Shown one piece after another: positions 3,166 through 64,000 of a stretch of 64,000 nt of DNA; position 1 is the stretch's first letter; each line of letters starts with the position of its first letter. The DNA comes from Thermoplasmata archaeon. Its GTDB lineage: Archaea > Thermoplasmatota > Thermoplasmata > UBA10834. The notes beneath the pieces were generated by a model. That model saw only the letters and a list, made by a program, of their open reading frames with translations. It was not told the DNA's origin and ran no database searches. The stretch is from contig JBFESP010000001.1 of the NCBI GenBank assembly GCA_041548485.1, positions 72,835 through 136,834 of the forward strand, written 5' to 3'. The position numbers were made by a program, and so were the translations under genes.

Positions 3166-4380
3166 ATGCATCCAGCGAACCATCTGAGAGGCACCAAGGG
3201 AGACGAACTGAGAGACAGACGGGTCGTCCTCGGTGTGACGGGTAGCATCGCGGCCGTCGACACGGTCAGGCTCTGCAGGGAGCTGATCCGACACGGTGCC
3301 GAGGTGCATGTGGTCATGTCCAAGGAGGCACAGAAGATCATCCACCCAAACGCGTTCGAGTTCGCCTCTGGACTCCCTGTTACCACGGAGATCGACGGTA
3401 GAGTTCAACACGTGGCGCTCTGCGGTGATGTGCCCGACAGAGCCGACCTGCTCCTGATAGCCCCTTGTACCGCCAACACTCTGTCCAAAGTCGCCCTCGG
3501 AATCGACGACACCTCGGTCACGACCTTCGCCACGACCGCGCTGGGAAGCGACATACCCGTCATGGTCGTGCCAGCCATGCATGGGAGCATGATGAAGAAC
3601 TCCGCAGTGCTCGAGAACATCGAGCGACTGAAAGGCATGGGAGTGACGGTTCTCGAGTCCAGGATGGAGGAGTCGAAGGCCAAGATGCCGGACATCGGCC
3701 ACATCGTCTCCACCGTGATATCACACATCGGAAGAAGGGACCTCAAAGGATTGAGAGTCCTCGTGATCGCCGGAGCGACGGAGGAGCCCGTCGATAACAT
3801 CAGGGTGCTGACCAACAGGAGCTCCGGGGAGACTGGCATCGAGATTGCCAGGACGGCGTTTCACAGAGGAGCGGAAACGGAACTCTGGATAGGCAGGTCA
3901 GACGCCGCCGTTCCATCCCATATGACACTCAGACGATTCCGAACGACTCAGGACCTCCACGATATGGTCGTCGCTGAGGAACCGACATGGGACATCGTGC
4001 TCTTCCCCGCTGCCGTGTCGGACTACGCCCCTGAGAAGGCGGAGGGCAAGATATCGTCGTCCGAGCCACAGATAACACTGACCCTGACGAGGAACCCGAA
4101 GATCATCGACGACATCAGGGCGAAGGTCGTCGTCGGGTTCAAGGCTCAGTCGCAAGTGGACGACGACAGACTGGTCTCAGAGTCGGTGGCGCTGATAGAG
4201 CGGTCGAAATGTTCGTTCGTCGCGGCGAACCTCGTGGAAGATGTCTCCGCCGGAAAGACACGGGTGTTGCTCGTCGACAACAAAGGCGCCCCTGAGGAAC
4301 TCAGGGGCACGAAGGCGGAAGTGGCGGAGAAGATTCTCGACAGGGCCGCGAGGATGGTCAGGTCAACTACCCACGAATAG
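3166..4380 (+). CDS. coaBC: Bifunctional phosphopantothenoylcysteine decarboxylase / phosphopantothenate-cysteine ligase (CoaBC/Dfp)
   Basis: 404 aa. N-terminal flavoprotein domain (VVLGVTGSIAAVDTVRL...PCTANTLSKVALGIDD) followed by a CoaB domain. The C-terminal ...LLVDNKGAPEELRGTKAEVAEKILD fits the conserved Dfp C-terminus. Confidence 0.9.
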   Translation: MHPANHLRGTKGDELRDRRVVLGVTGSIAAVDTVRLCRELIRHGAEVHVVMSKEAQKIIHPNAFEFASGLPVTTEIDGRVQHVALCGDVPDRADLLLIAPCTANTLSKVALGIDDTSVTTFATTALGSDIPVMVVPAMHGSMMKNSAVLENIERLKGMGVTVLESRMEESKAKMPDIGHIVSTVISHIGRRDLKGLRVLVIAGATEEPVDNIRVLTNRSSGETGIEIARTAFHRGAETELWIGRSDAAVPSHMTLRRFRTTQDLHDMVVAEEPTWDIVLFPAAVSDYAPEKAEGKISSSEPQITLTLTRNPKIIDDIRAKVVVGFKAQSQVDDDRLVSESVALIERSKCSFVAANLVEDVSAGKTRVLLVDNKGAPEELRGTKAEVAEKILDRAARMVRSTTHE

Positions 4381-5497
4381 ATTCGTGGGCTTGTAACTGA
4401 GGTGGAACCGAATGTTCGGAAACAGAGCTCGCTACGATTGGTTGGTTGACGGACAACCTACCAGCCTCAGCTTTACCGAGGCTGGCGATGTTGCGTGCGG
4501 CATTGAGGTCGGCGTGGAGTTCGAAGGCGCAAGCCTTGCATCGGTAGACGAGCCCGGTCCGGTTGCTCTTGCGGATGTCACCACATCTGGAACATCTCTG
4601 GCTCGTATATCGGGCGTCGATATAGATGACGGCCTTGCCCTGTCCTTCGGCTTTGTACTCGATGAACCTCTGGAGTTGGCCGAAGGCCCAATCCCCGAGC
4701 TTCCTGTTGAAGCTCCGCCCGAGTCGTTTGTCTCTTCGGATCCCAAGCTTCTCCAATGCCACGGCGTCGAAAGGTTGGGACAATATCCAGTTAGCTATCT
4801 GGTGATTGACATCGGCCATGAAGCGTTTTTCCCGGCCCGAGAGTCGCTTGAGCTTCCTCTTGGCGGAGCGGGTGCCTTTGGCCTGAAGCCTCCGACGGAT
4901 ATGCTGATATTCGCCCTTGACCTTTCGAATGTGAGAGGATCTGTAGAATTTGTCGTTGGAGAGAACGGCATGGTTGAGTATGCCTGTATCGACCCCGATG
5001 ATGGTGTTGGGTGGCCTGACGGACGGCGTCCTCTCCTCGACCACGATGCCGAGGACGAGTTTGTGGCCATTGTAGGAGAGCTTGGCAGAAACGACCTTCC
5101 AATCCGTGTATTTCTTAAAGTAATCAGGAATTTTAGTTGGGACATTGACTCTCTTGTTGATACTCGCAAGGGTCACGAACCCCCTTCCGAGTTCGGGCGT
5201 GAATGTCCGTTGGTTGTATCTGATGGCCGACCATCTCCGTTTGAACGGCAATCTCCTGAGTTTAACCAGTTTCAGCATCTCGGAAGCATTGTCCCGGGCG
5301 GTCGTGACGATGGACGCGGGGATGTTCGGATATTTTTCTCGGATGGGGTAGTATGTGAGATGGTGGAGCTTGAGCTTATTGACAATCTTATTCTCGAACC
5401 CCGCCTTGAGAATGTCATTGGTGGCGAGATTGGTCATCTCGATGGTCTTGACCAGGCGGTCATCTGGCTCGATATGCAGAGTGATCGTCCGTTGCAC
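4367..5497 (-). CDS. tnpB: TnpB (OrfB), the RuvC-like RNA-guided nuclease of the IS200/IS605 family. No tnpA accompanies it, so it is an IS1341-type element.
   Basis: 376 aa with the RuvC-I motif IGVDTGI, RuvC-II motif AVALEKL, zinc finger CSRCG...CKAC and RuvC-III motif HADLNAARNIA. GC content is lower than that of the flanking genes. Confidence 0.9.
   Translation of the reverse strand: MQRTITLHIEPDDRLVKTIEMTNLATNDILKAGFENKIVNKLKLHHLTYYPIREKYPNIPASIVTTARDNASEMLKLVKLRRLPFKRRWSAIRYNQRTFTPELGRGFVTLASINKRVNVPTKIPDYFKKYTDWKVVSAKLSYNGHKLVLGIVVEERTPSVRPPNTIIGVDTGILNHAVLSNDKFYRSSHIRKVKGEYQHIRRRLQAKGTRSAKRKLKRLSGREKRFMADVNHQIANWILSQPFDAVALEKLGIRRDKRLGRSFNRKLGDWAFGQLQRFIEYKAEGQGKAVIYIDARYTSQRCSRCGDIRKSNRTGLVYRCKACAFELHADLNAARNIASLGKAEAGRLSVNQPIVASSVSEHSVPPQLQAHESIRG
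4381..4530 (-). ncRNA. Predicted omega RNA (right-end RNA) scaffold overlapping the 3' end of tnpB. The guide is expected from the adjacent coaBC 3' end.
   Basis: Position is inferred from the known architecture of TnpB systems. The sequence shows perfect hairpins at 4408-4419 (CCGAA-TG-TTCGG) and 4461-4485 (CCAGCCTC...GAGGCTGG). Confidence 0.3.
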
Positions 5498-5602
5498 ATA
5501 GGGTCATTCAGTTCTGATTATGTATATATGTAAAGAGAGGGATGGTGAAACTATTCTTACAATTCCTCCCACGATTGAAATCACGGGTTTCCTTGGAGGT
5601 AA

Positions 5603-6478
5603 TTGATGAAAACCAGGGCTTTCTGCCCGGGACACATCACAGGATTCTTCGAGATGTGCAGGACGGACAACCCAATGGCAAGCGGTTCAAGGGGTGGGGG
5701 GCTATGTACCTCGTTGGGCGCACTATCCGAGGTCAGCGTAGAGAGAGCCGATCGTCTCGAGATCGATGTCAACATCGACCGCGAGCCCAGAGAAGCCGAA
5801 GTCACCCGGGCCGCACTCGGGCACCTGCTCGGTGATGAGCAGCTTCATGTCAATGTGACAACTGAGCTCGACCTTCCGGAGAGCCAGGGCTTCGGTATGA
5901 GCGCAGCAGGGGCACTCTCCGCATGCGTCGCAGCCTCGCACACACTCGGAATCGCCCGCCAGAAGGCATTCGAGGCGGCGCACGTCGCGGAGATCGAATG
6001 TGGTACAGGGCTGGGAGACGTTTCGGCGATTCATCGCGCAGGCATCACGATACGCGAATCGCCAGGTCTCCCGCCGACCGGCAGGGTCCACCGCATCGAG
6101 GGAGCCCCGGAAGTCGTTCTCGCGGTTGTCGGACCGCCCATCAGAACCTCGGACATGCTCAGAGATATCGAGCTGACACGGCGTATCAACCGTTGTGGCG
6201 CAGAGAGGGTTCCTCAGCTGCTCGGCGAACCGACGGTGGACGACCTGATGCGATTGTCATCATCGTTCGCGCTGGAGACAGGCCTCGCGTCCGAACGGGT
6301 GATATCCGCCATGGACGCAGCATCCGTCGCCGGAGCTGCCAGCATGATCATGCTCGGCAATTCCGTTTTCGCAATAGGACGGACGGAGGAGCTGATCGAT
6401 ATTCTCAGCGCGTTCGGAGAGGTCCGATCGTGCGGTGTCGACGGTGCAGGCGCCAGGGTTCTGCCCAATCAGGCGTGA
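5603..6478 (+). CDS. GHMP-family kinase, probable archaeal pantoate kinase (CoA pathway)
   Basis: 291 aa. N-terminal AFCPGHITGFFE, GHMP motif PESQGFGMSAAGALSA. It is adjacent to coaBC, and a GGAGGT SD lies 5 nt upstream. Confidence 0.65.
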   Translation: MMKTRAFCPGHITGFFEMCRTDNPMASGSRGGGLCTSLGALSEVSVERADRLEIDVNIDREPREAEVTRAALGHLLGDEQLHVNVTTELDLPESQGFGMSAAGALSACVAASHTLGIARQKAFEAAHVAEIECGTGLGDVSAIHRAGITIRESPGLPPTGRVHRIEGAPEVVLAVVGPPIRTSDMLRDIELTRRINRCGAERVPQLLGEPTVDDLMRLSSSFALETGLASERVISAMDAASVAGAASMIMLGNSVFAIGRTEELIDILSAFGEVRSCGVDGAGARVLPNQA

Positions 6479-31845: not shown

Positions 31846-34287
31846 TCACTCCGTCCGACCCAGCTTCTTCTCCTTCTCTGCTATCAGGAGCCGGGTCTTA
31901 ATCACGCTGTCGGGATTCAGGGATATGCTGTCGATGCCGAGCTCAACGAGGAACTCCGCGAACTCCGGGAAGTCGGAGGGGGCCTGGCCACAGATACCGA
32001 TCTTCTTCCCCTTCGCCTTGACAGCCTTCACGGCACTCGCGATGAGCTTCTTCACCGCAGGGTTCCTTTCGTCGTACAGATGTGACACGAGCTCGGAGTC
32101 CCTGTCGAGACCGAGCGTCAGCTGGGTGAGGTCGTTCGACCCTATCGAGAACCCGTCGAACACCTCCGCGAACTCCTCCGCAAGGAGGACATTGCTGGGG
32201 AGCTCGCACATGACATAGACCTCCAGCCCGTTCTCGCCCTGCTTCAGGCCAAAGCCGGCCATGGTCTCTATCACCTTCCGACCCTCCTCAGGGGTCCTGC
32301 AGAATGGGACCATCACCTTCACGTTGGTGAGACCTTTGCTGTCCCTTACCCTCTTCAGCGCGCTGCACTCGAGGGCGAAGGCAGGGCTGAACTTCTTGTC
32401 GTAGTAGCGTGCGGCCCCGCGCCAGCCGATCATCGGGTTGGCCTCCACAGGCTCGTACAACTTCCCCCCGAGAAGGTTCGCATACTCGTTCGTCTTGAAA
32501 TCCGACAGCCGGACTATCACGTCGTTGGGAAAGAACGTCGCGGCTATCTTGCCCACGCCCCACGCGAGTTTGTCGAGGAAGAAATCCGTCTTGCTCTCGT
32601 AGCCATGGGTCCGCTCGTCTATCTTCGCCACTATCTCCGCGACCTCGGGCTCGTCCTTCGCGCGTTTGACGAGCTCGTCGTACTCTATCAAGGCAAGTGG
32701 ATGGATGCCGATGTGGGACGCGATGATGAACTCGAGTCTGGCAAGGCCTACCCCGTCGCACGGAATCTGCCCCTGCGTGAAGACGTGCTCGGGAACTGCC
32801 ACATTCATGAATATCTTCGTCCTGGTAGACGGCATGTGAGACAGGTCGGTATTGTCGATCCTGAATTTGAGCTTGCCCTCGTAGACGCGTCCCTCGCCCT
32901 CCGACGTGTCCACGGTCACCTTCTGTCCGTCGCTTAGAACGCTGGTACCGTTCCCCGCCCCGACTATGCATGGAATCCCCAGCTCGCGGGAGACGATCGC
33001 GGCGTGACAGGTCCTTCCGCCCCTGTCGGCGACTATGGCGGACGCGATGCGCATTATGGGCTCCCAATCCGGATCGGTCTTGTCGGTGACCAGGACCTCG
33101 CCCTTCTTGAATTCCGATATCTCGAAGGCGCTCTCGAGGACGTTCACAACGCCCGCGCCTATCTTGTGGCCGACCGCCTCGCCCAGCAAGAGCACTTCGC
33201 TCCGCTCCTCCAGCACATACGTCTCGAGCACCCTCTCCGCTTTGGCGGCATGGACGGTCTCGGGACGGGCCTGAACGATGTAGAGCTCGCCCGTCAGACC
33301 GTCCTTGGCCCACTCCACGTCCATGGACTTCCTATAGTGCTCCTCGATGATGCACGCCCATTTGGCGAGCGTGATGATCTCGCCGTCGTCGAGGACGAAC
33401 CTCTGCCTGTCCTTCGTCGGCACTTCGACGTCGATCATGCCATGACCCTTGGAGGCGTACACCAGCTTGTGCTGTTTGGTGCCGAGCTTCTTCTCGACGA
33501 TGGGGTCGTCGAACCGGCCGAGGGTGGGTTTGAACACGTAGAACTGGTCCGGGTTGACTGCGCCCTGGACGATCATCTCCCCCAGACCCCAGGAACCTGT
33601 TATGTAGACGACCTTGTCGAAGCCGCTCTCTGTATCCAGTGTGAACATCACCCCGGAGCACGCCTGGTCGCTCCTGACCATCCTCTGGACGCCTACCGAG
33701 AGCGCGCTCTCCAGCTGTCCGAACCCCCTGTGGGCCCTGTACGCTATCGCTCGGTCGGTGAAGAGGCTGGCGAAGCACTGCTTCATCGCTTTCAGCACGT
33801 TGGCCTCGCCTTTCACGTTGAGTATCGTCTCGTGCTGACCGGCGAACGATGCGCCGTCAAGGTCTTCCGTGGTAGCGCTCGAACGGATCGCCACGCTCGG
33901 GTCGCGTAGGCCGAGCCTCCGGCCGAGCTCCCAGTAACCGTATGCGATCTCTCGCCTGAGCTCGCCCGGGAACTCAGCATCCAGGAACGCTCGGCGTATC
34001 TTGCGTCCTCTCTCGGACACGTCGGAGGGGTTGTCAGGGTCGACGCCCTCGAGGGTGTCCTTGATCTGCTCATCGAGGCCTGCGCTCTCGACGAACCATC
34101 TGAAAGCCTTGGTGGAGACTGCAAAACCCTCGGGGACGCGTATCCCCTTGTCGGCGAGATGCCTGAGCATCTCACCCAGCGAGGCGTTCTTCCCACCGAC
34201 CTTGGAGACATCATTCAGACCGATCTGGTCAAACCATAGCAGATGCTCGTTGGTCCCGTTGCGTGGTTTCTTCGGCCCGTTGAGCAT
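31846..34287 (-). CDS. ppsA: Phosphoenolpyruvate synthase (pyruvate, water dikinase)
   Basis: 813 aa. ATP-grasp N-domain, phosphohistidine domain (GGRTCHAAIVSRELGIPC), PEP-utilising C-domain. A leaderless-type TATA lies about 27 nt upstream. Confidence 0.9.
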   Translation of the reverse strand: MLNGPKKPRNGTNEHLLWFDQIGLNDVSKVGGKNASLGEMLRHLADKGIRVPEGFAVSTKAFRWFVESAGLDEQIKDTLEGVDPDNPSDVSERGRKIRRAFLDAEFPGELRREIAYGYWELGRRLGLRDPSVAIRSSATTEDLDGASFAGQHETILNVKGEANVLKAMKQCFASLFTDRAIAYRAHRGFGQLESALSVGVQRMVRSDQACSGVMFTLDTESGFDKVVYITGSWGLGEMIVQGAVNPDQFYVFKPTLGRFDDPIVEKKLGTKQHKLVYASKGHGMIDVEVPTKDRQRFVLDDGEIITLAKWACIIEEHYRKSMDVEWAKDGLTGELYIVQARPETVHAAKAERVLETYVLEERSEVLLLGEAVGHKIGAGVVNVLESAFEISEFKKGEVLVTDKTDPDWEPIMRIASAIVADRGGRTCHAAIVSRELGIPCIVGAGNGTSVLSDGQKVTVDTSEGEGRVYEGKLKFRIDNTDLSHMPSTRTKIFMNVAVPEHVFTQGQIPCDGVGLARLEFIIASHIGIHPLALIEYDELVKRAKDEPEVAEIVAKIDERTHGYESKTDFFLDKLAWGVGKIAATFFPNDVIVRLSDFKTNEYANLLGGKLYEPVEANPMIGWRGAARYYDKKFSPAFALECSALKRVRDSKGLTNVKVMVPFCRTPEEGRKVIETMAGFGLKQGENGLEVYVMCELPSNVLLAEEFAEVFDGFSIGSNDLTQLTLGLDRDSELVSHLYDERNPAVKKLIASAVKAVKAKGKKIGICGQAPSDFPEFAEFLVELGIDSISLNPDSVIKTRLLIAEKEKKLGRTE

Positions 34288-61169: not shown

Positions 61170-61227
61170 TTCTACCTGGCAAGCCAATCAGATGCTTTTT
61201 ATGGCCTTTAGCCATATCAGGCCACCG

Positions 61228-62208
61228 ATGAAGGCTGTGCTCCTGGTAGGTGGAATGGGCACGCGCCTCAGACCTCTCACGTACAGGGTGCCTAAACCAC
61301 TGGTCCCGGTCATGGGTAAGCCGCTCATGATGCACGTGATAGACTCGCTCCCCGACGATGTTGACGAGACCATCGTCCCGGTTGGCTACAAACGGGACGT
61401 TATGGAAGACTACCTGAAGAGGAACCCTCCGCGGAGGAAGATAACCATCGTGGAGGAGAAGGAGCCGATGGGGACGGGAGGCGCCGTGAAGAACGTGGAG
61501 GACTACATAGACGGCCCATTCCTTGTCATCAACGGAGACAGCATCTCGTCGTTAGACATGAGCAGGTTCATCGGATATCATAGGGAGAAGAGGGCGTTTG
61601 CGACCATCTCGCTATGGGAGGTGGATGATCCCACGCCATTCGGCGTGGTCGACATCGATGCAGGCGGCCAGATACACAGGTTCCAGGAGAAACCGAACAG
61701 GACAGAGGCATTCTCTCGGCTCATCAACGCTGGTGCTTACGCGCTGGAGCACGAGGTCCTTGACTACATCGGGAAGGGGTTCGTCTCCATGGAGAGGGAG
61801 GTGTTCCCTCGGATAATCGAAAAGGGCATGTACGGACTCAGATTCGATGGATACTGGGTCGATTGCGGGACGAAGGATAACCTCCTAAACGCGTTCTGGA
61901 CACTCATGCGCGGTAGGTTACATGAGAATGTCGGGAACGGGTCACATGAATCCGGCATCGCACCCCCCGCAGTCGTCGAAGACGGCGCGGTCGTTACAGA
62001 TGCCGTCATCGGACCTTATGCATACGTCTCAGAAGGCACGATTGTAGGGCCATCGACGAAGGTCGAGAGTTCGGTGATCTTTCGCGGTGCCAGGATCGGG
62101 AGGGGGTGCACGATCAGAAACTCCATCATCGACGTCGACGTCGTTGTACCTGACGACACAGTCGTGAGCGACGCAATCGTCAGTGATGCCGTTTCCCCGG
62201 CTGAATGA
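61228..62208 (+). CDS. Sugar-1-phosphate nucleotidyltransferase with a C-terminal left-handed beta-helix domain (mannose-1-P guanylyltransferase / glucose-1-P thymidylyltransferase-like)
   Basis: MKAVLLVGGMGTRLRPLT signature. C-terminal hexapeptide repeats. Confidence 0.75.
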   Translation: MKAVLLVGGMGTRLRPLTYRVPKPLVPVMGKPLMMHVIDSLPDDVDETIVPVGYKRDVMEDYLKRNPPRRKITIVEEKEPMGTGGAVKNVEDYIDGPFLVINGDSISSLDMSRFIGYHREKRAFATISLWEVDDPTPFGVVDIDAGGQIHRFQEKPNRTEAFSRLINAGAYALEHEVLDYIGKGFVSMEREVFPRIIEKGMYGLRFDGYWVDCGTKDNLLNAFWTLMRGRLHENVGNGSHESGIAPPAVVEDGAVVTDAVIGPYAYVSEGTIVGPSTKVESSVIFRGARIGRGCTIRNSIIDVDVVVPDDTVVSDAIVSDAVSPAE

Positions 62209-62240: not shown

Positions 62241-63260
62241 TCACAGCGCGTTCAATATTAGGAAGAGTGCCCCGGCTATCGACGCCGACGCGGGAATGGT
62301 GAGAATCCAGGCGATCATTATCTTACGACCGACTCCCCACCTCACTGCGGAGAGTCTCTTGGTCGAACCCACACCCATGATCGCCCCCGACACCGTGTGT
62401 GTCGTACTCACAGGAATCCCGAAATGAGTCGCGACAGCTATCATCGTCGCGGCGCCTGTCTCTGCGCAGAACCCCTGGTATGGCTGCAGTTGAGTCACAC
62501 GTGCGGCCATCGTCTTGACTATCCTCCATCCTCCGAAGAAGGTGCCCATCGCTATCATCGCGCCGCACGACACGATGATCCATGAATCAGGCTCGAACGT
62601 CCCCGTGACGAGAAGTCCAGCTTCGAGCATCATCACGGTCGTGATAATGCCCATGCCCTTCTGGGCATCGTTCGAACCATGCATCATGGACAGGAAGGCC
62701 ATCGAACCTATCTGCAGTTTCCTGAACCACCAGTTCACCTTTATCCTTGTAGCCTTCCTCCCAGCCCGCATCGTCATCGCAGTCAACAAGAAACCGATTG
62801 CGAGCCCCACGACCGGAGAAATGACGATGAAGATGATCGTCAACAGCGTTCCACTCCAGACAATCGCACCGAGGAACCATACGGCTCCTCCCGCCCCGAT
62901 CAGGCCACCGATAAGTGCATGGCTGCTCGAAGTAGGTATCCCGAGCCACCAAGTTATCAGGTCCCAGATTATGGCTCCCATCACGGCACAGAATATCAGC
63001 AGGATGCCGTACTCCTCCACCAGGGCACTGTCGATGATCCCCTTGCCTACGGTCTTAGCGACTGCCGTGCCGAATAAGAATATCCCGACGAAATTGAAGA
63101 TGGCTGCGAGTCCCACGGCCCATACAGGGGAGAGCACCCTGGTTGCCACGATTGTCGCTACCGAGTTCGCGGAGTCGTGAAAACCGTTCACGAACTCGAA
63201 CGCGAGGGTAAGGGCGATGGTCGTCACGCCGAGGAGAGACAGTCCTAAGAGATCCATCAC
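62241..63260 (-). CDS. pit: Inorganic phosphate transporter, PiT (PHO4) family
   Basis: 339 aa. The duplicated GxNDxxN motifs (GFHDSAN, HGSNDAQ) are typical of PiT. Confidence 0.85.
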   Translation of the reverse strand: MMDLLGLSLLGVTTIALTLAFEFVNGFHDSANSVATIVATRVLSPVWAVGLAAIFNFVGIFLFGTAVAKTVGKGIIDSALVEEYGILLIFCAVMGAIIWDLITWWLGIPTSSSHALIGGLIGAGGAVWFLGAIVWSGTLLTIIFIVISPVVGLAIGFLLTAMTMRAGRKATRIKVNWWFRKLQIGSMAFLSMMHGSNDAQKGMGIITTVMMLEAGLLVTGTFEPDSWIIVSCGAMIAMGTFFGGWRIVKTMAARVTQLQPYQGFCAETGAATMIAVATHFGIPVSTTHTVSGAIMGVGSTKRLSAVRWGVGRKIMIAWILTIPASASIAGALFLILNAL

Positions 63261-63267
63261 GGCCCAC

Positions 63268-63897
63268 CTACGAGTGTTTGATGAAGATATCTTTGATTAC
63301 ATCTGCGGCGTCTTCGCACTTATCCGTTGCCTGTTCCAGGTGTTCGTAGATCTCCTTGAGCTTGATTATGTCCATCACATCGCTCGTTTTGAATAATCCC
63401 GCCACAGCCTGGTGGGTGATCTCATCTCCGATGTTCTCAAGACGGTTGATCTCTATGCAATGATTGACGATTTCGTTCTTCCTCTTGAAGTTCCTAAGAT
63501 CCTTGACCGCATGATTGACCTCCTTCGTCGCTATGAGCAAGACCTCGACCATCCGTATCATGTCTGGTGGAATCCGCTTTATCTCGTAGGACCACATCCT
63601 ATGCGACGCGGACTCCATGTAATCCAGGATGTCATCCAACCTCGACGCAAGCTTCGACATGTCGTCGTGGTCTATGGGAGTCACGAAAGTCTTGTTCAAC
63701 GCTTCGGAGATATCGTGCACGGCGTCATCCCCCTTGTCCTCGATCGTCTTCATCTTGTCGCGCTTCTCGGCTACGTGGTCGAAGTTCTTCACAAGGTCGA
63801 GAAGGGTCTCAGCACCCTCAAGGACGATGTCGGCCTGCTGTTCGAGCATCTCGAAGAAATGCTTCTCCTGAGGAATAATCCATTCCTTGAACCCCAT
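63268..63897 (-). CDS. DUF47/PhoU-like phosphate transport regulator, partner of pit
   Basis: 209 aa, helical, lying upstream of pit in the conserved arrangement. Confidence 0.75.
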   Translation of the reverse strand: MGFKEWIIPQEKHFFEMLEQQADIVLEGAETLLDLVKNFDHVAEKRDKMKTIEDKGDDAVHDISEALNKTFVTPIDHDDMSKLASRLDDILDYMESASHRMWSYEIKRIPPDMIRMVEVLLIATKEVNHAVKDLRNFKRKNEIVNHCIEINRLENIGDEITHQAVAGLFKTSDVMDIIKLKEIYEHLEQATDKCEDAADVIKDIFIKHS

Positions 63898-64000
63898 CGT
63901 TTGTCCCCTTGGTGACGGCGAATGCTACATGTGGTCTTAACCCTTGCGGGCCCCGACTGGCTTCCGGACGGGTGCATACTGCGCCTGGCGGAAGCTCAAC

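Follow-up and report, generated by a model that had tools for sequence, protein, structure and literature searches.

A stretch of 64,000 nucleotides from a Thermoplasmata archaeon (Thermoplasmatota; Thermoplasmata; UBA10834; GenBank assembly GCA_041548485.1, contig JBFESP010000001.1, positions 72,835 to 136,834 of the forward strand), referred to below as the window, carries a tnpB gene between coaBC and a pantoate kinase gene, both of coenzyme A (CoA) biosynthesis. As a whole, the locus is very probably best explained by a 1244-bp element with tnpB as its only gene that inserted at the overlap of coaBC and the kinase gene, directly 3' of the sequence TTCAT, by a mechanism that we reconstruct by analogy. 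The element is an ordinary, well-resolved IS200/IS605 (IS1341-group) TnpB element of an already known kind, and its main parts are as follows.

4362 to 5605, minus strand: the whole element, 1244 bp, a non-autonomous member of the IS200/IS605 family, IS1341 group, with tnpB and its guide (omega) RNA only
5606 to 5610, minus strand: target or transposon-adjacent motif (TAM) TTCAT, which is ATGAA on the plus strand and includes the kinase start codon
4367 to 5497, minus strand: tnpB coding sequence, 376 aa, with a GTG start and a TAG stop within the terminal GTAGTTGAC

Boundaries and target of the insertion

The insertion is proved by an empty site in a sister genome, a Thermoplasmatota bin (L013) whose kinase is 84% identical to that of the window. 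In a blastn comparison of the window with L013, the match, which in both flanks consists of approximately 90% identical DNA, stops at 4361 and restarts just after 5606 (at about 5613). The empty site reads ...GGATGGTCAG|ATGAGC... and the filled site ...GGATGGTCAG[GTCAAC...TAATTG]ATGAAA, with zero duplicated target bases between them; a 1-nt (G) ambiguity of the boundary is settled by the invariant GTTGAC terminus. Alignment of the flanks of independent copies gives the same result, as on the 3' side homology extends to ...AGTTACAAGCC-hairpin-GGTAGTTGAC and no further, and on the 5' side it starts directly after TCAT. Since the L013 match is broken exactly at the element ends and independent copies share these ends, the element is defined as 4362–5605, within which tnpB takes up 1131 of the 1244 bp and the left end about 108, with no tnpA inside. 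Related copies are 1216–1292 bp long. The original prediction, which was made from the sequence of the window without database searches, had placed the element between coaBC and the kinase gene, at 4250–5602; the location was broadly right and the boundaries were not. The coaBC stop codon (4378–4380) lies inside the element, and the insertion, which is not simply between the two genes, split their ATGA stop/start overlap itself.

In 26 independent left flanks, CAT is invariant and is preceded by T at position -4 in 22 and by T at position -5 in 17, from which we infer TTCAT as the target motif of the family. The element-end motif (TEM), TTGAC, is nearly invariant and differs from the TAM at positions 3 and 5. 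The GC content of the element (52.4%, compared with 59.1% elsewhere in the window) is the lowest among all 1244-bp windows of the 64 kb. A GC content below that of the neighbouring genes had been noticed before and taken to indicate horizontal acquisition; the acquisition stands by virtue of the empty site in L013, whereas low GC fits a foreign origin and is no proof of one.

The TnpB protein

The minus-strand product had been described as a 376-aa TnpB with three RuvC motifs and a zinc finger that was unlikely to be a decayed pseudogene, and this description holds. The protein scores 186.7 bits with the NCBIfam model NF040570, "RNA-guided endonuclease TnpB" (cut-off 100), and 84.6 and 39.6 bits with the Pfam families PF07282 and PF01385, each above its gathering score; by name, the Pfam families matched are OrfB_IS605 and Cas12f1-like_TNB. 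The RuvC triad is formed by D170 in IGVDTGI (codon 4988–4990), E249 in ALEKL (4751–4753) and D330 in HADLNAARNIA (4508–4510), and the CxxC...CxxC zinc finger, located between RuvC-II and RuvC-III, by C302, C305, C320 and C323. None of these seven residues varies among 30 aligned homologues. D170, E249 and D330 align with the VGVDLG, ME(L)L and NADYNAARNIA motifs of CnCas12f1 (8hr5). An AlphaFold model has a mean pLDDT of 85.6, and the top matches of this model in the PDB, as found by Foldseek with E-values down to 6e-21, are all Cas12f, TnpB or Fanzor proteins, with AsCas12f, ISFba1 TnpB and ISDra2 TnpB on top. The protein has 1764 homologues at E <= 1e-10, and dN/dS values of 0.14–0.16 in comparisons of tnpB with its three nearest copies point to purifying selection on the tnpB lineage. 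TnpB is apparently intact and is a putative RNA-guided, TAM-dependent DNA nuclease.

The other strand of the element contains an open reading frame (ORF) of 373 aa (4412–5533, plus strand; 1807–2928 in L173) that is antisense to nearly all of tnpB. If this ORF were the real gene, the TnpB reading would be an artefact of the mirror frame, and the 373-aa gene is indeed present in gene calls for JBFEXI010000003.1 (GCA_041545865.1) and for one Logan contig. Pfam gives no match to the plus-strand ORF, even at E <= 1; it is the minus-strand ORF that has strong family matches, the large set of homologues, a confident predicted fold and a dN/dS well below 1. The idea of a plus-strand gene, to which we assign next to no probability, is for practical purposes already refuted. 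The 373-aa ORF is almost certainly the mirror-frame artefact, and the public gene calls that list it miss TnpB.

The nearest solved relatives of the protein by both sequence and fold are Cas12f proteins (AsCas12f, CnCas12f1), not ISDra2 TnpB; of all solved proteins, type V-F Cas12f (AsCas12f, PDB 8j3r, 8dzj) comes closest in both structure and sequence (E 6e-21, TM-score 0.61–0.63). Assignment to type V-F CRISPR-Cas12f was nevertheless rejected: the model NF049972 gives 105.7 bits against a cut-off of 450, no repeat arrays are present in the window, no CRISPR array is near the gene, and the gene is located inside transposon ends. The known exapted TnpB regulators (TldR) are nuclease-dead, and the intact triad together with the intact ends and TAM does not fit a regulator of this type.

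The C-terminal tail of TnpB (residues 351–376; 4367–4444, minus strand) has pLDDT values below 50 and is coded by the omega-RNA scaffold. The ORFs of TnpB relatives end at widely different points, and the TAG of the copy in the window lies inside the invariant GTAGTTGAC, so that this segment is more suggestive of read-through of RNA-constrained DNA than of a functional domain.

A predicted structured guide RNA overlapping the end of tnpB

A structured guide RNA is predicted to overlap the 3' end of tnpB and to stop at the right-end boundary. The original prediction had proposed to look for homology of the right end and of the omega RNA in other copies, and this homology exists in the form of a common GTAGTTGAC terminus and a covarying scaffold. 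The near-invariant GTAGTTGAC, found 125–165 nt past the RuvC-III codons, is exact in 41 of 43 distinct copies and is followed by sequence that is unrelated from one copy to another. Between the RuvC-III codons and this boundary, RNAalifold recovered four helices from 44 copies, which gives the following predicted anatomy.

4362 to 4492, minus strand: omega-RNA scaffold, predicted with RNAalifold, pair counts and a covariance model
4486-4476/4470-4460, minus strand: helix H1
4458-4454/4444-4440, minus strand: helix H2, with the loop GUCAAC at 4450-4445
4435-4428/4401-4393, minus strand: helix H3, which encloses a variable insert, here with a small hairpin at 4419-4408
4390-4381/4378-4369, minus strand: helix H4, the terminal hairpin, 8 bp with the tetraloop UCUA
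4450-4445 with 4367-4362, minus strand: likely pseudoknot, GUCAAC/GUUGAC
4342 to 4361, minus strand: predicted guide CTGACCATCCTCGCGGCCCT, antisense to the coaBC codons ...DRAARMV, with an assumed length of 16–20 nt

Pair counts support this structure. With the pseudoknot included, 95.2% of the cells are paired, compared with 24–45% in slid controls, and 364 cells show changes on both sides of a pair, compared with 47–79 in the slid controls; a result as good was obtained in 0 of 500 shuffles. For a covariance model, the window and the three copies nearest to it were set aside and 40 relatives were used, none of them above 71% protein identity; the model finds a single match in the 64 kb, from 4492 to 4362, over the full length of the model (115.6 bits, E 1.8e-36). 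The single-sequence fold of the window scaffold has a z-score of -5.7. The two strands of the pseudoknot, GUCAAC and GUUGAC, are both almost invariant and are complementary in 99.6% of the cells, with one compensatory change (L168, GUCAGC/GCUGAC) and one G.U among their changes; the pseudoknot is likely to be part of the scaffold.

Two hairpins that had been singled out in the original prediction, at 4408–4419 (CCGAACATTCGG) and at 4461–4485, are real: the former lies in the variable insert of H3 and the latter is H1. A guide RNA encoded where tnpB ends was also a sound prediction, although the covarying scaffold extends from 4492 to 4362 and not over 4381–4530. The guide itself had been misplaced at 4360–4380. 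With the right-end boundary at 4362, the guide would run from 4361 to about 4342, and 4362–4380 comprises the end of the scaffold and the new C-terminus of coaBC. In the empty site, the sequence beside the position of the target motif (CTCAT in L013) is the same as the predicted guide, and within the window the only perfect match of the guide is at its own site. At 33674–33689 (plus strand), 12 nt agree with the beginning of the guide (CTGACCATCCTC) and are preceded by CGCTC and not by TTCAT; as a seed match without a TAM, this site is an unlikely off-target and was discarded.

HgcC (RF00062) has been linked to right-end tetraloops (PMC4615843). In scans of the window and of 20 related loci, neither this nor any other curated Rfam family reached its gathering score, and nothing relevant was found at the locus at E <= 10. 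In L124 and L125, a second TAGTTGA follows the first terminal motif after about 160 nt; it is possibly another right end beside the element, either in tandem or without a protein gene (PATE-like).

The left end

The opposite end of the element also has a conserved secondary structure, with the following parts.

5536 to 5605, minus strand: left end, an outer stem (arms approximately 5599-5593/5562-5556) around an inner hairpin
5568 to 5587, minus strand: left-end inner hairpin, supported by covariation, CCCGTGAT (5587-5580), loop TTCA (5579-5576) and ATCGTGGG (5575-5568)
5522 to 5535, minus strand: AT-rich, TATA-like box TTTACATATATAC, approximately 30 nt upstream of the tnpB GTG, a candidate tnpB promoter

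Covariation among 26 copies is clear, with 79.9% of the cells paired as against 36–50% in slid controls, and 107 double-change cells as against 25–39. The inner hairpin loops of the family are of the UUCA/UUUA type. In the window, the inner stem contains two G.U/G.T wobbles on the minus strand, which on the plus strand are A.C mismatches, and the outer stem retains five of its seven pairs, as it does in L008, a copy at another site. AT-rich segments are found at the place of the TATA-like box in related copies.

The left end had also been proposed to supply a Shine-Dalgarno (SD) sequence to the downstream kinase gene, a GGAGG that could pair with an upstream CCTCC. Both motifs are present (CCTCC at 5565–5569, GGAGG at 5595–5599), and GGAGG does come from the left end. 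It belongs, however, to the outer stem, whose sequence varies freely across the family, which makes it an accident of this sub-lineage; a built-in, outward-facing SD as a family feature of the left end was rejected. The promoter function and translational control that the original prediction attributed to the insertion are speculative.

Consequences for coaBC and the kinase gene

The two host genes flank the element, and coaBC extends into its right end.

3166 to 4380, plus strand: coaBC (TIGR00521, 334.6 bits)
5606 to 6478, plus strand: pantoate kinase gene, with ATG at 5606–5608; the NF040725 alignment covers residues 4–287

In L013, coaBC and the kinase gene overlap by the four bases of ATGA, which combine stop and start codons. 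An ATGA or TGATG overlap of the two genes is found in more than a dozen genomes of Thermoplasmata and Methanomassiliicoccales, and the coupled arrangement is therefore ancestral, which implies that translational coupling between coaBC and the kinase gene has long been conserved. The insertion splits this overlap. The kinase retains its ATG, but its upstream region is now formed by the left end, whose GGAGG precedes that codon by 6 nt, and the gene, to judge by this arrangement, is no longer translationally coupled to coaBC. The last 19 nt of coaBC (4362–4380) belong to the element and supply the final base of an Arg codon, the residues S-T-T-H-E and a stop, so that the ancestral ...RMVR-TGA, as in L013, has become ...RMVRSTTHE-TAG, with the stop codon (4378–4380) in the loop of the terminal hairpin; coaBC and tnpB overlap convergently by 14 nt (4367–4380).

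TTCAT is the complement of ATGAA, and the positions of other copies were examined in this respect. Insertions abut the start of an ORF of 100 aa or more on the opposite strand in 9 of 26 cases (L008, L110, L115, L116, L121, L127, L155, L162 and the window), with 0–22 open codons upstream of the start where checkable, compared with a background of 21.6%. In this crude test the difference, though suggestive, is not significant (p = 0.089), and a preference for start codons of opposite-strand genes was discarded.

The new context of the kinase gene raises the possibility of a host takeover, in which the left end would provide a ribosome-binding site, and perhaps, through its near-palindromic TATA-like box, an outward promoter, for an essential kinase that is uncoupled from coaBC for the first time in its lineage, and in which convergent transcription would link the CoA genes to tnpB and the omega RNA. 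We regard this as improbable. Very improbable, in our judgement, is the broader notion of a co-opted element, whose left end would serve as promoter or ribosome-binding site of the kinase gene or whose TnpB-RNA complex or antisense RNA would regulate the CoA genes. It is compatible with the fixation of the insertion in the sampled population, with the GGAGGT 6 nt before the kinase ATG, with the near-palindromic TATA-like box approximately 75 nt upstream of that ATG, and with the orientation of the guide and the tnpB transcript, which would be antisense to any RNA reading through from coaBC. Several points speak against it. The catalytic triad is intact, unlike that of TldR regulators, and the GGAGG is part of a stem that is free to vary across the family. 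The use of SD sequences in this genome is not demonstrable: 17 of 44 long ORFs have an SD-like 5-mer near a candidate start, a count that is uninformative given several starts per ORF and a background of 5% per 13-nt window. Transcription that continues past coaBC could express the kinase just as well, the plus strand of the element having only two T5 runs, and scarless excision would restore the ancestral coupled operon, so that no dependence on the element is required.

Population, mobility and proposed mechanism

The exact TnpB protein is found at this locus only, on contigs from several samples of one study. All of the approximately 19 contigs of this population, including GenBank JBFEXI010000003.1, carry the insertion; it is thus fixed in the population as sampled, and the sister species (L013) lacks it. 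Close relatives of the protein have 92, 84 and 75% aa identity, and the two with readable neighbours (84% and 75%) are in unrelated gene contexts, which indicates that the family moves. A metagenome scan added 80 further loci of TnpB relatives at 41–84% identity, and among some 80 more distant relatives, 12 adjoin a Y1 (HUH) transposase gene, an association that ties the family to mobilisation of the TnpA type.

By analogy with characterised elements, the element would have inserted as single-stranded DNA, without target duplication, directly 3' of TTCAT, the other strand of the ATGA(A) overlap. A Y1 TnpA coded elsewhere would recognise the covarying end hairpins and excise or insert the top (minus) strand; most tnpB genes have no tnpA nearby and rely on one in trans (PMC10055086). 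TnpB, with its RuvC residues D170, E249 and D330, would bind an RNA of approximately 150 nt that consists of the scaffold (4492 to 4362) and the guide (4361 to approximately 4342). Loss of the element would leave a scarless junction, ...GGATGGTCAG|ATGAAAACC, and with it restore TTCAT followed by CTGACCATCC..., which is the target motif next to a match to the guide. TnpB could then cut the restored junction (target TTCAT-CTGACCATCCTCGCGG), and recombination with a copy that bears the element would bring it back, whereas the occupied site would be spared because the element ends in TTGAC, which is unlike TTCAT at positions 3 and 5. In the literature, elements are retained because their guide directs TnpB to cut the empty donor site, and TAM and TEM of the ISGst elements likewise differ at positions 3 and 5 (PMC10055086). 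The guide of the present element is the sequence beside the target motif in the empty site, as the donor-site retention model requires (PMC10055086).

Several observations weigh against this account of an active, mobile element. Searches of the 64-kb window by tblastn with three TnpA sequences of the family gave chance matches only, in agreement with the original prediction of an IS1341-type element without tnpA, and repeat search, TnpB tblastn, terminal-motif search and the covariance model recovered one locus only, with no second copy or protein-less (PATE-like) ends in the 64 kb. Look-ups for an empty allele in the same population, made with the 290-aa and 254-aa forms of the kinase, returned element-bearing contigs only. 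With neither a tnpA nor a second copy in the 64 kb and with no empty allele, current mobility is hypothetical. In addition, tnpB begins with GTG, while its relatives use ATG; the TAM is deduced from the flanks of copies; nuclease activity and the guide RNA with its 5' end are predictions; and the pseudoknot, with its near-invariant bases and a single compensatory change, is taken as likely and not as shown.

These observations might also be explained by a stranded relic, that is, a fixed and immobile copy that has no matching TnpA and whose tnpB and RNA persist, idle, for lack of time to decay. The single copy and the missing tnpA in the 64 kb, the presence of the insertion in every contig with an identical kinase or TnpB protein, the GTG start and the reduction of the left-end outer stem to five of seven pairs could all be read in this way, and we consider it a rather unlikely but serious alternative. 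Decay is made less likely by the intact ORF, the intact ends and the match of the RNA over its full length: the ORF is uninterrupted, with all catalytic and zinc residues kept, and the omega-RNA region fits the family model with no helix broken. The shortened outer stem recurs in L008, which is at a different site, and the search for tnpA was confined to the 64-kb window. The dN/dS values reflect selection on the lineage, although this selection cannot be dated relative to the insertion in question.

Comparison with known TnpB systems

Under the preferred explanation, that of a tnpB-only insertion of a well-known type, the closest parallels are in studied TnpB systems of bacteria and archaea. 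ISDra2 TnpB of Deinococcus radiodurans (PMC8612924, PMC10097598; PDB 8exa, 8bf8, 8h1j) is likewise a compact nuclease with RuvC domain and zinc finger and has the same fold. Its guide RNA covers the last part of tnpB up to the right-end boundary, the guide being taken from the flank. Several stems make up the scaffold, whose 3' end pairs with an upstream loop in a pseudoknot, as is likely in the window, and a 5-nt target motif is located beside the left end. ISDra2 differs in having its own tnpA and in its TAM, TTGAT as against the TTCAT proposed here; the proteins are only approximately 17% identical and the scaffold sequences are unrelated.

The IS1341-type tnpB genes described from archaea, among them Halobacterium salinarum (PMC4615843; for circular forms, PMC12558985), also come without tnpA and have an RNA at the tnpB 3' end. 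These 3' sense-overlapping RNAs (sotRNAs) have an 8-bp right-end hairpin with a tetraloop (PMC4615843), of the UUCA/UUUA type; the hairpin of the window, with 8 bp and UCUA, corresponds to this "RE-like tetraloop", and its relatives mostly have UUCA or UUUA. Their hosts belong to another lineage than the present Thermoplasmata, and the RNA of the window, in contrast to theirs, is a prediction.

ISGst2-type elements of Geobacillus stearothermophilus (PMC10055086) resemble the element in that most copies lack tnpA and are mobilised in trans. Their TAM and TEM are TTTAT and TTCAC, compared with TTCAT and TTGAC here, the mismatches in both pairs being at positions 3 and 5. The retention ("cut-and-copy") model is founded on the agreement between the guide and the empty donor joint. 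These elements are bacterial and their activity has been shown by experiment, whereas everything beyond the sequence anatomy is deduced for the element described here. TnpB7 of Sulfolobus islandicus (PMC11043419) is, by contrast, archaeal, and it shares a 5-nt TAM and a distinct end motif that shields the native site. It is of the IS605 type, with TTTAA as TAM and TTCAC as end motif, and is a thermophile enzyme that has been tested in vivo and in vitro.

Annotation and resource value

The locus leaves the current understanding of TnpB systems unchanged, and its value is mainly as an annotation case and a resource. For a TnpB clade that comes mostly from archaeal sources and is covered by no Rfam family, the exact element boundaries, the TAM TTCAT as deduced from flanks, the end motif TTGAC and a guide-RNA model with support from covariation are now defined, and they are the parts needed for testing a compact nuclease of 376 aa as an editor. 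The insertion also illustrates that an element whose target is the complement of ATGA can hit a stop/start overlap and keep both frames usable, yet break translational coupling. Finally, the locus exposes a mis-annotation in a public assembly, where the antisense ORF has been called in place of tnpB.

The kinase gene is affected as well. Gene callers applied to Logan contigs (L001, L179–L188) shorten the kinase to 254 aa by choosing an internal TTG at 5714 and not the ATG at 5606, whereas in the 291-aa form the alignment with the family profile already begins at residue 4; the insertion appears to mislead start-codon prediction. Elsewhere in the window, the only other 1244-bp segment with a GC content near that of the element (53.0%) is at approximately 62701–63944, and near it lies a pair of 41-nt direct repeats (61216–61256 and 62899–62939), 71% identical and 1683 bp apart.

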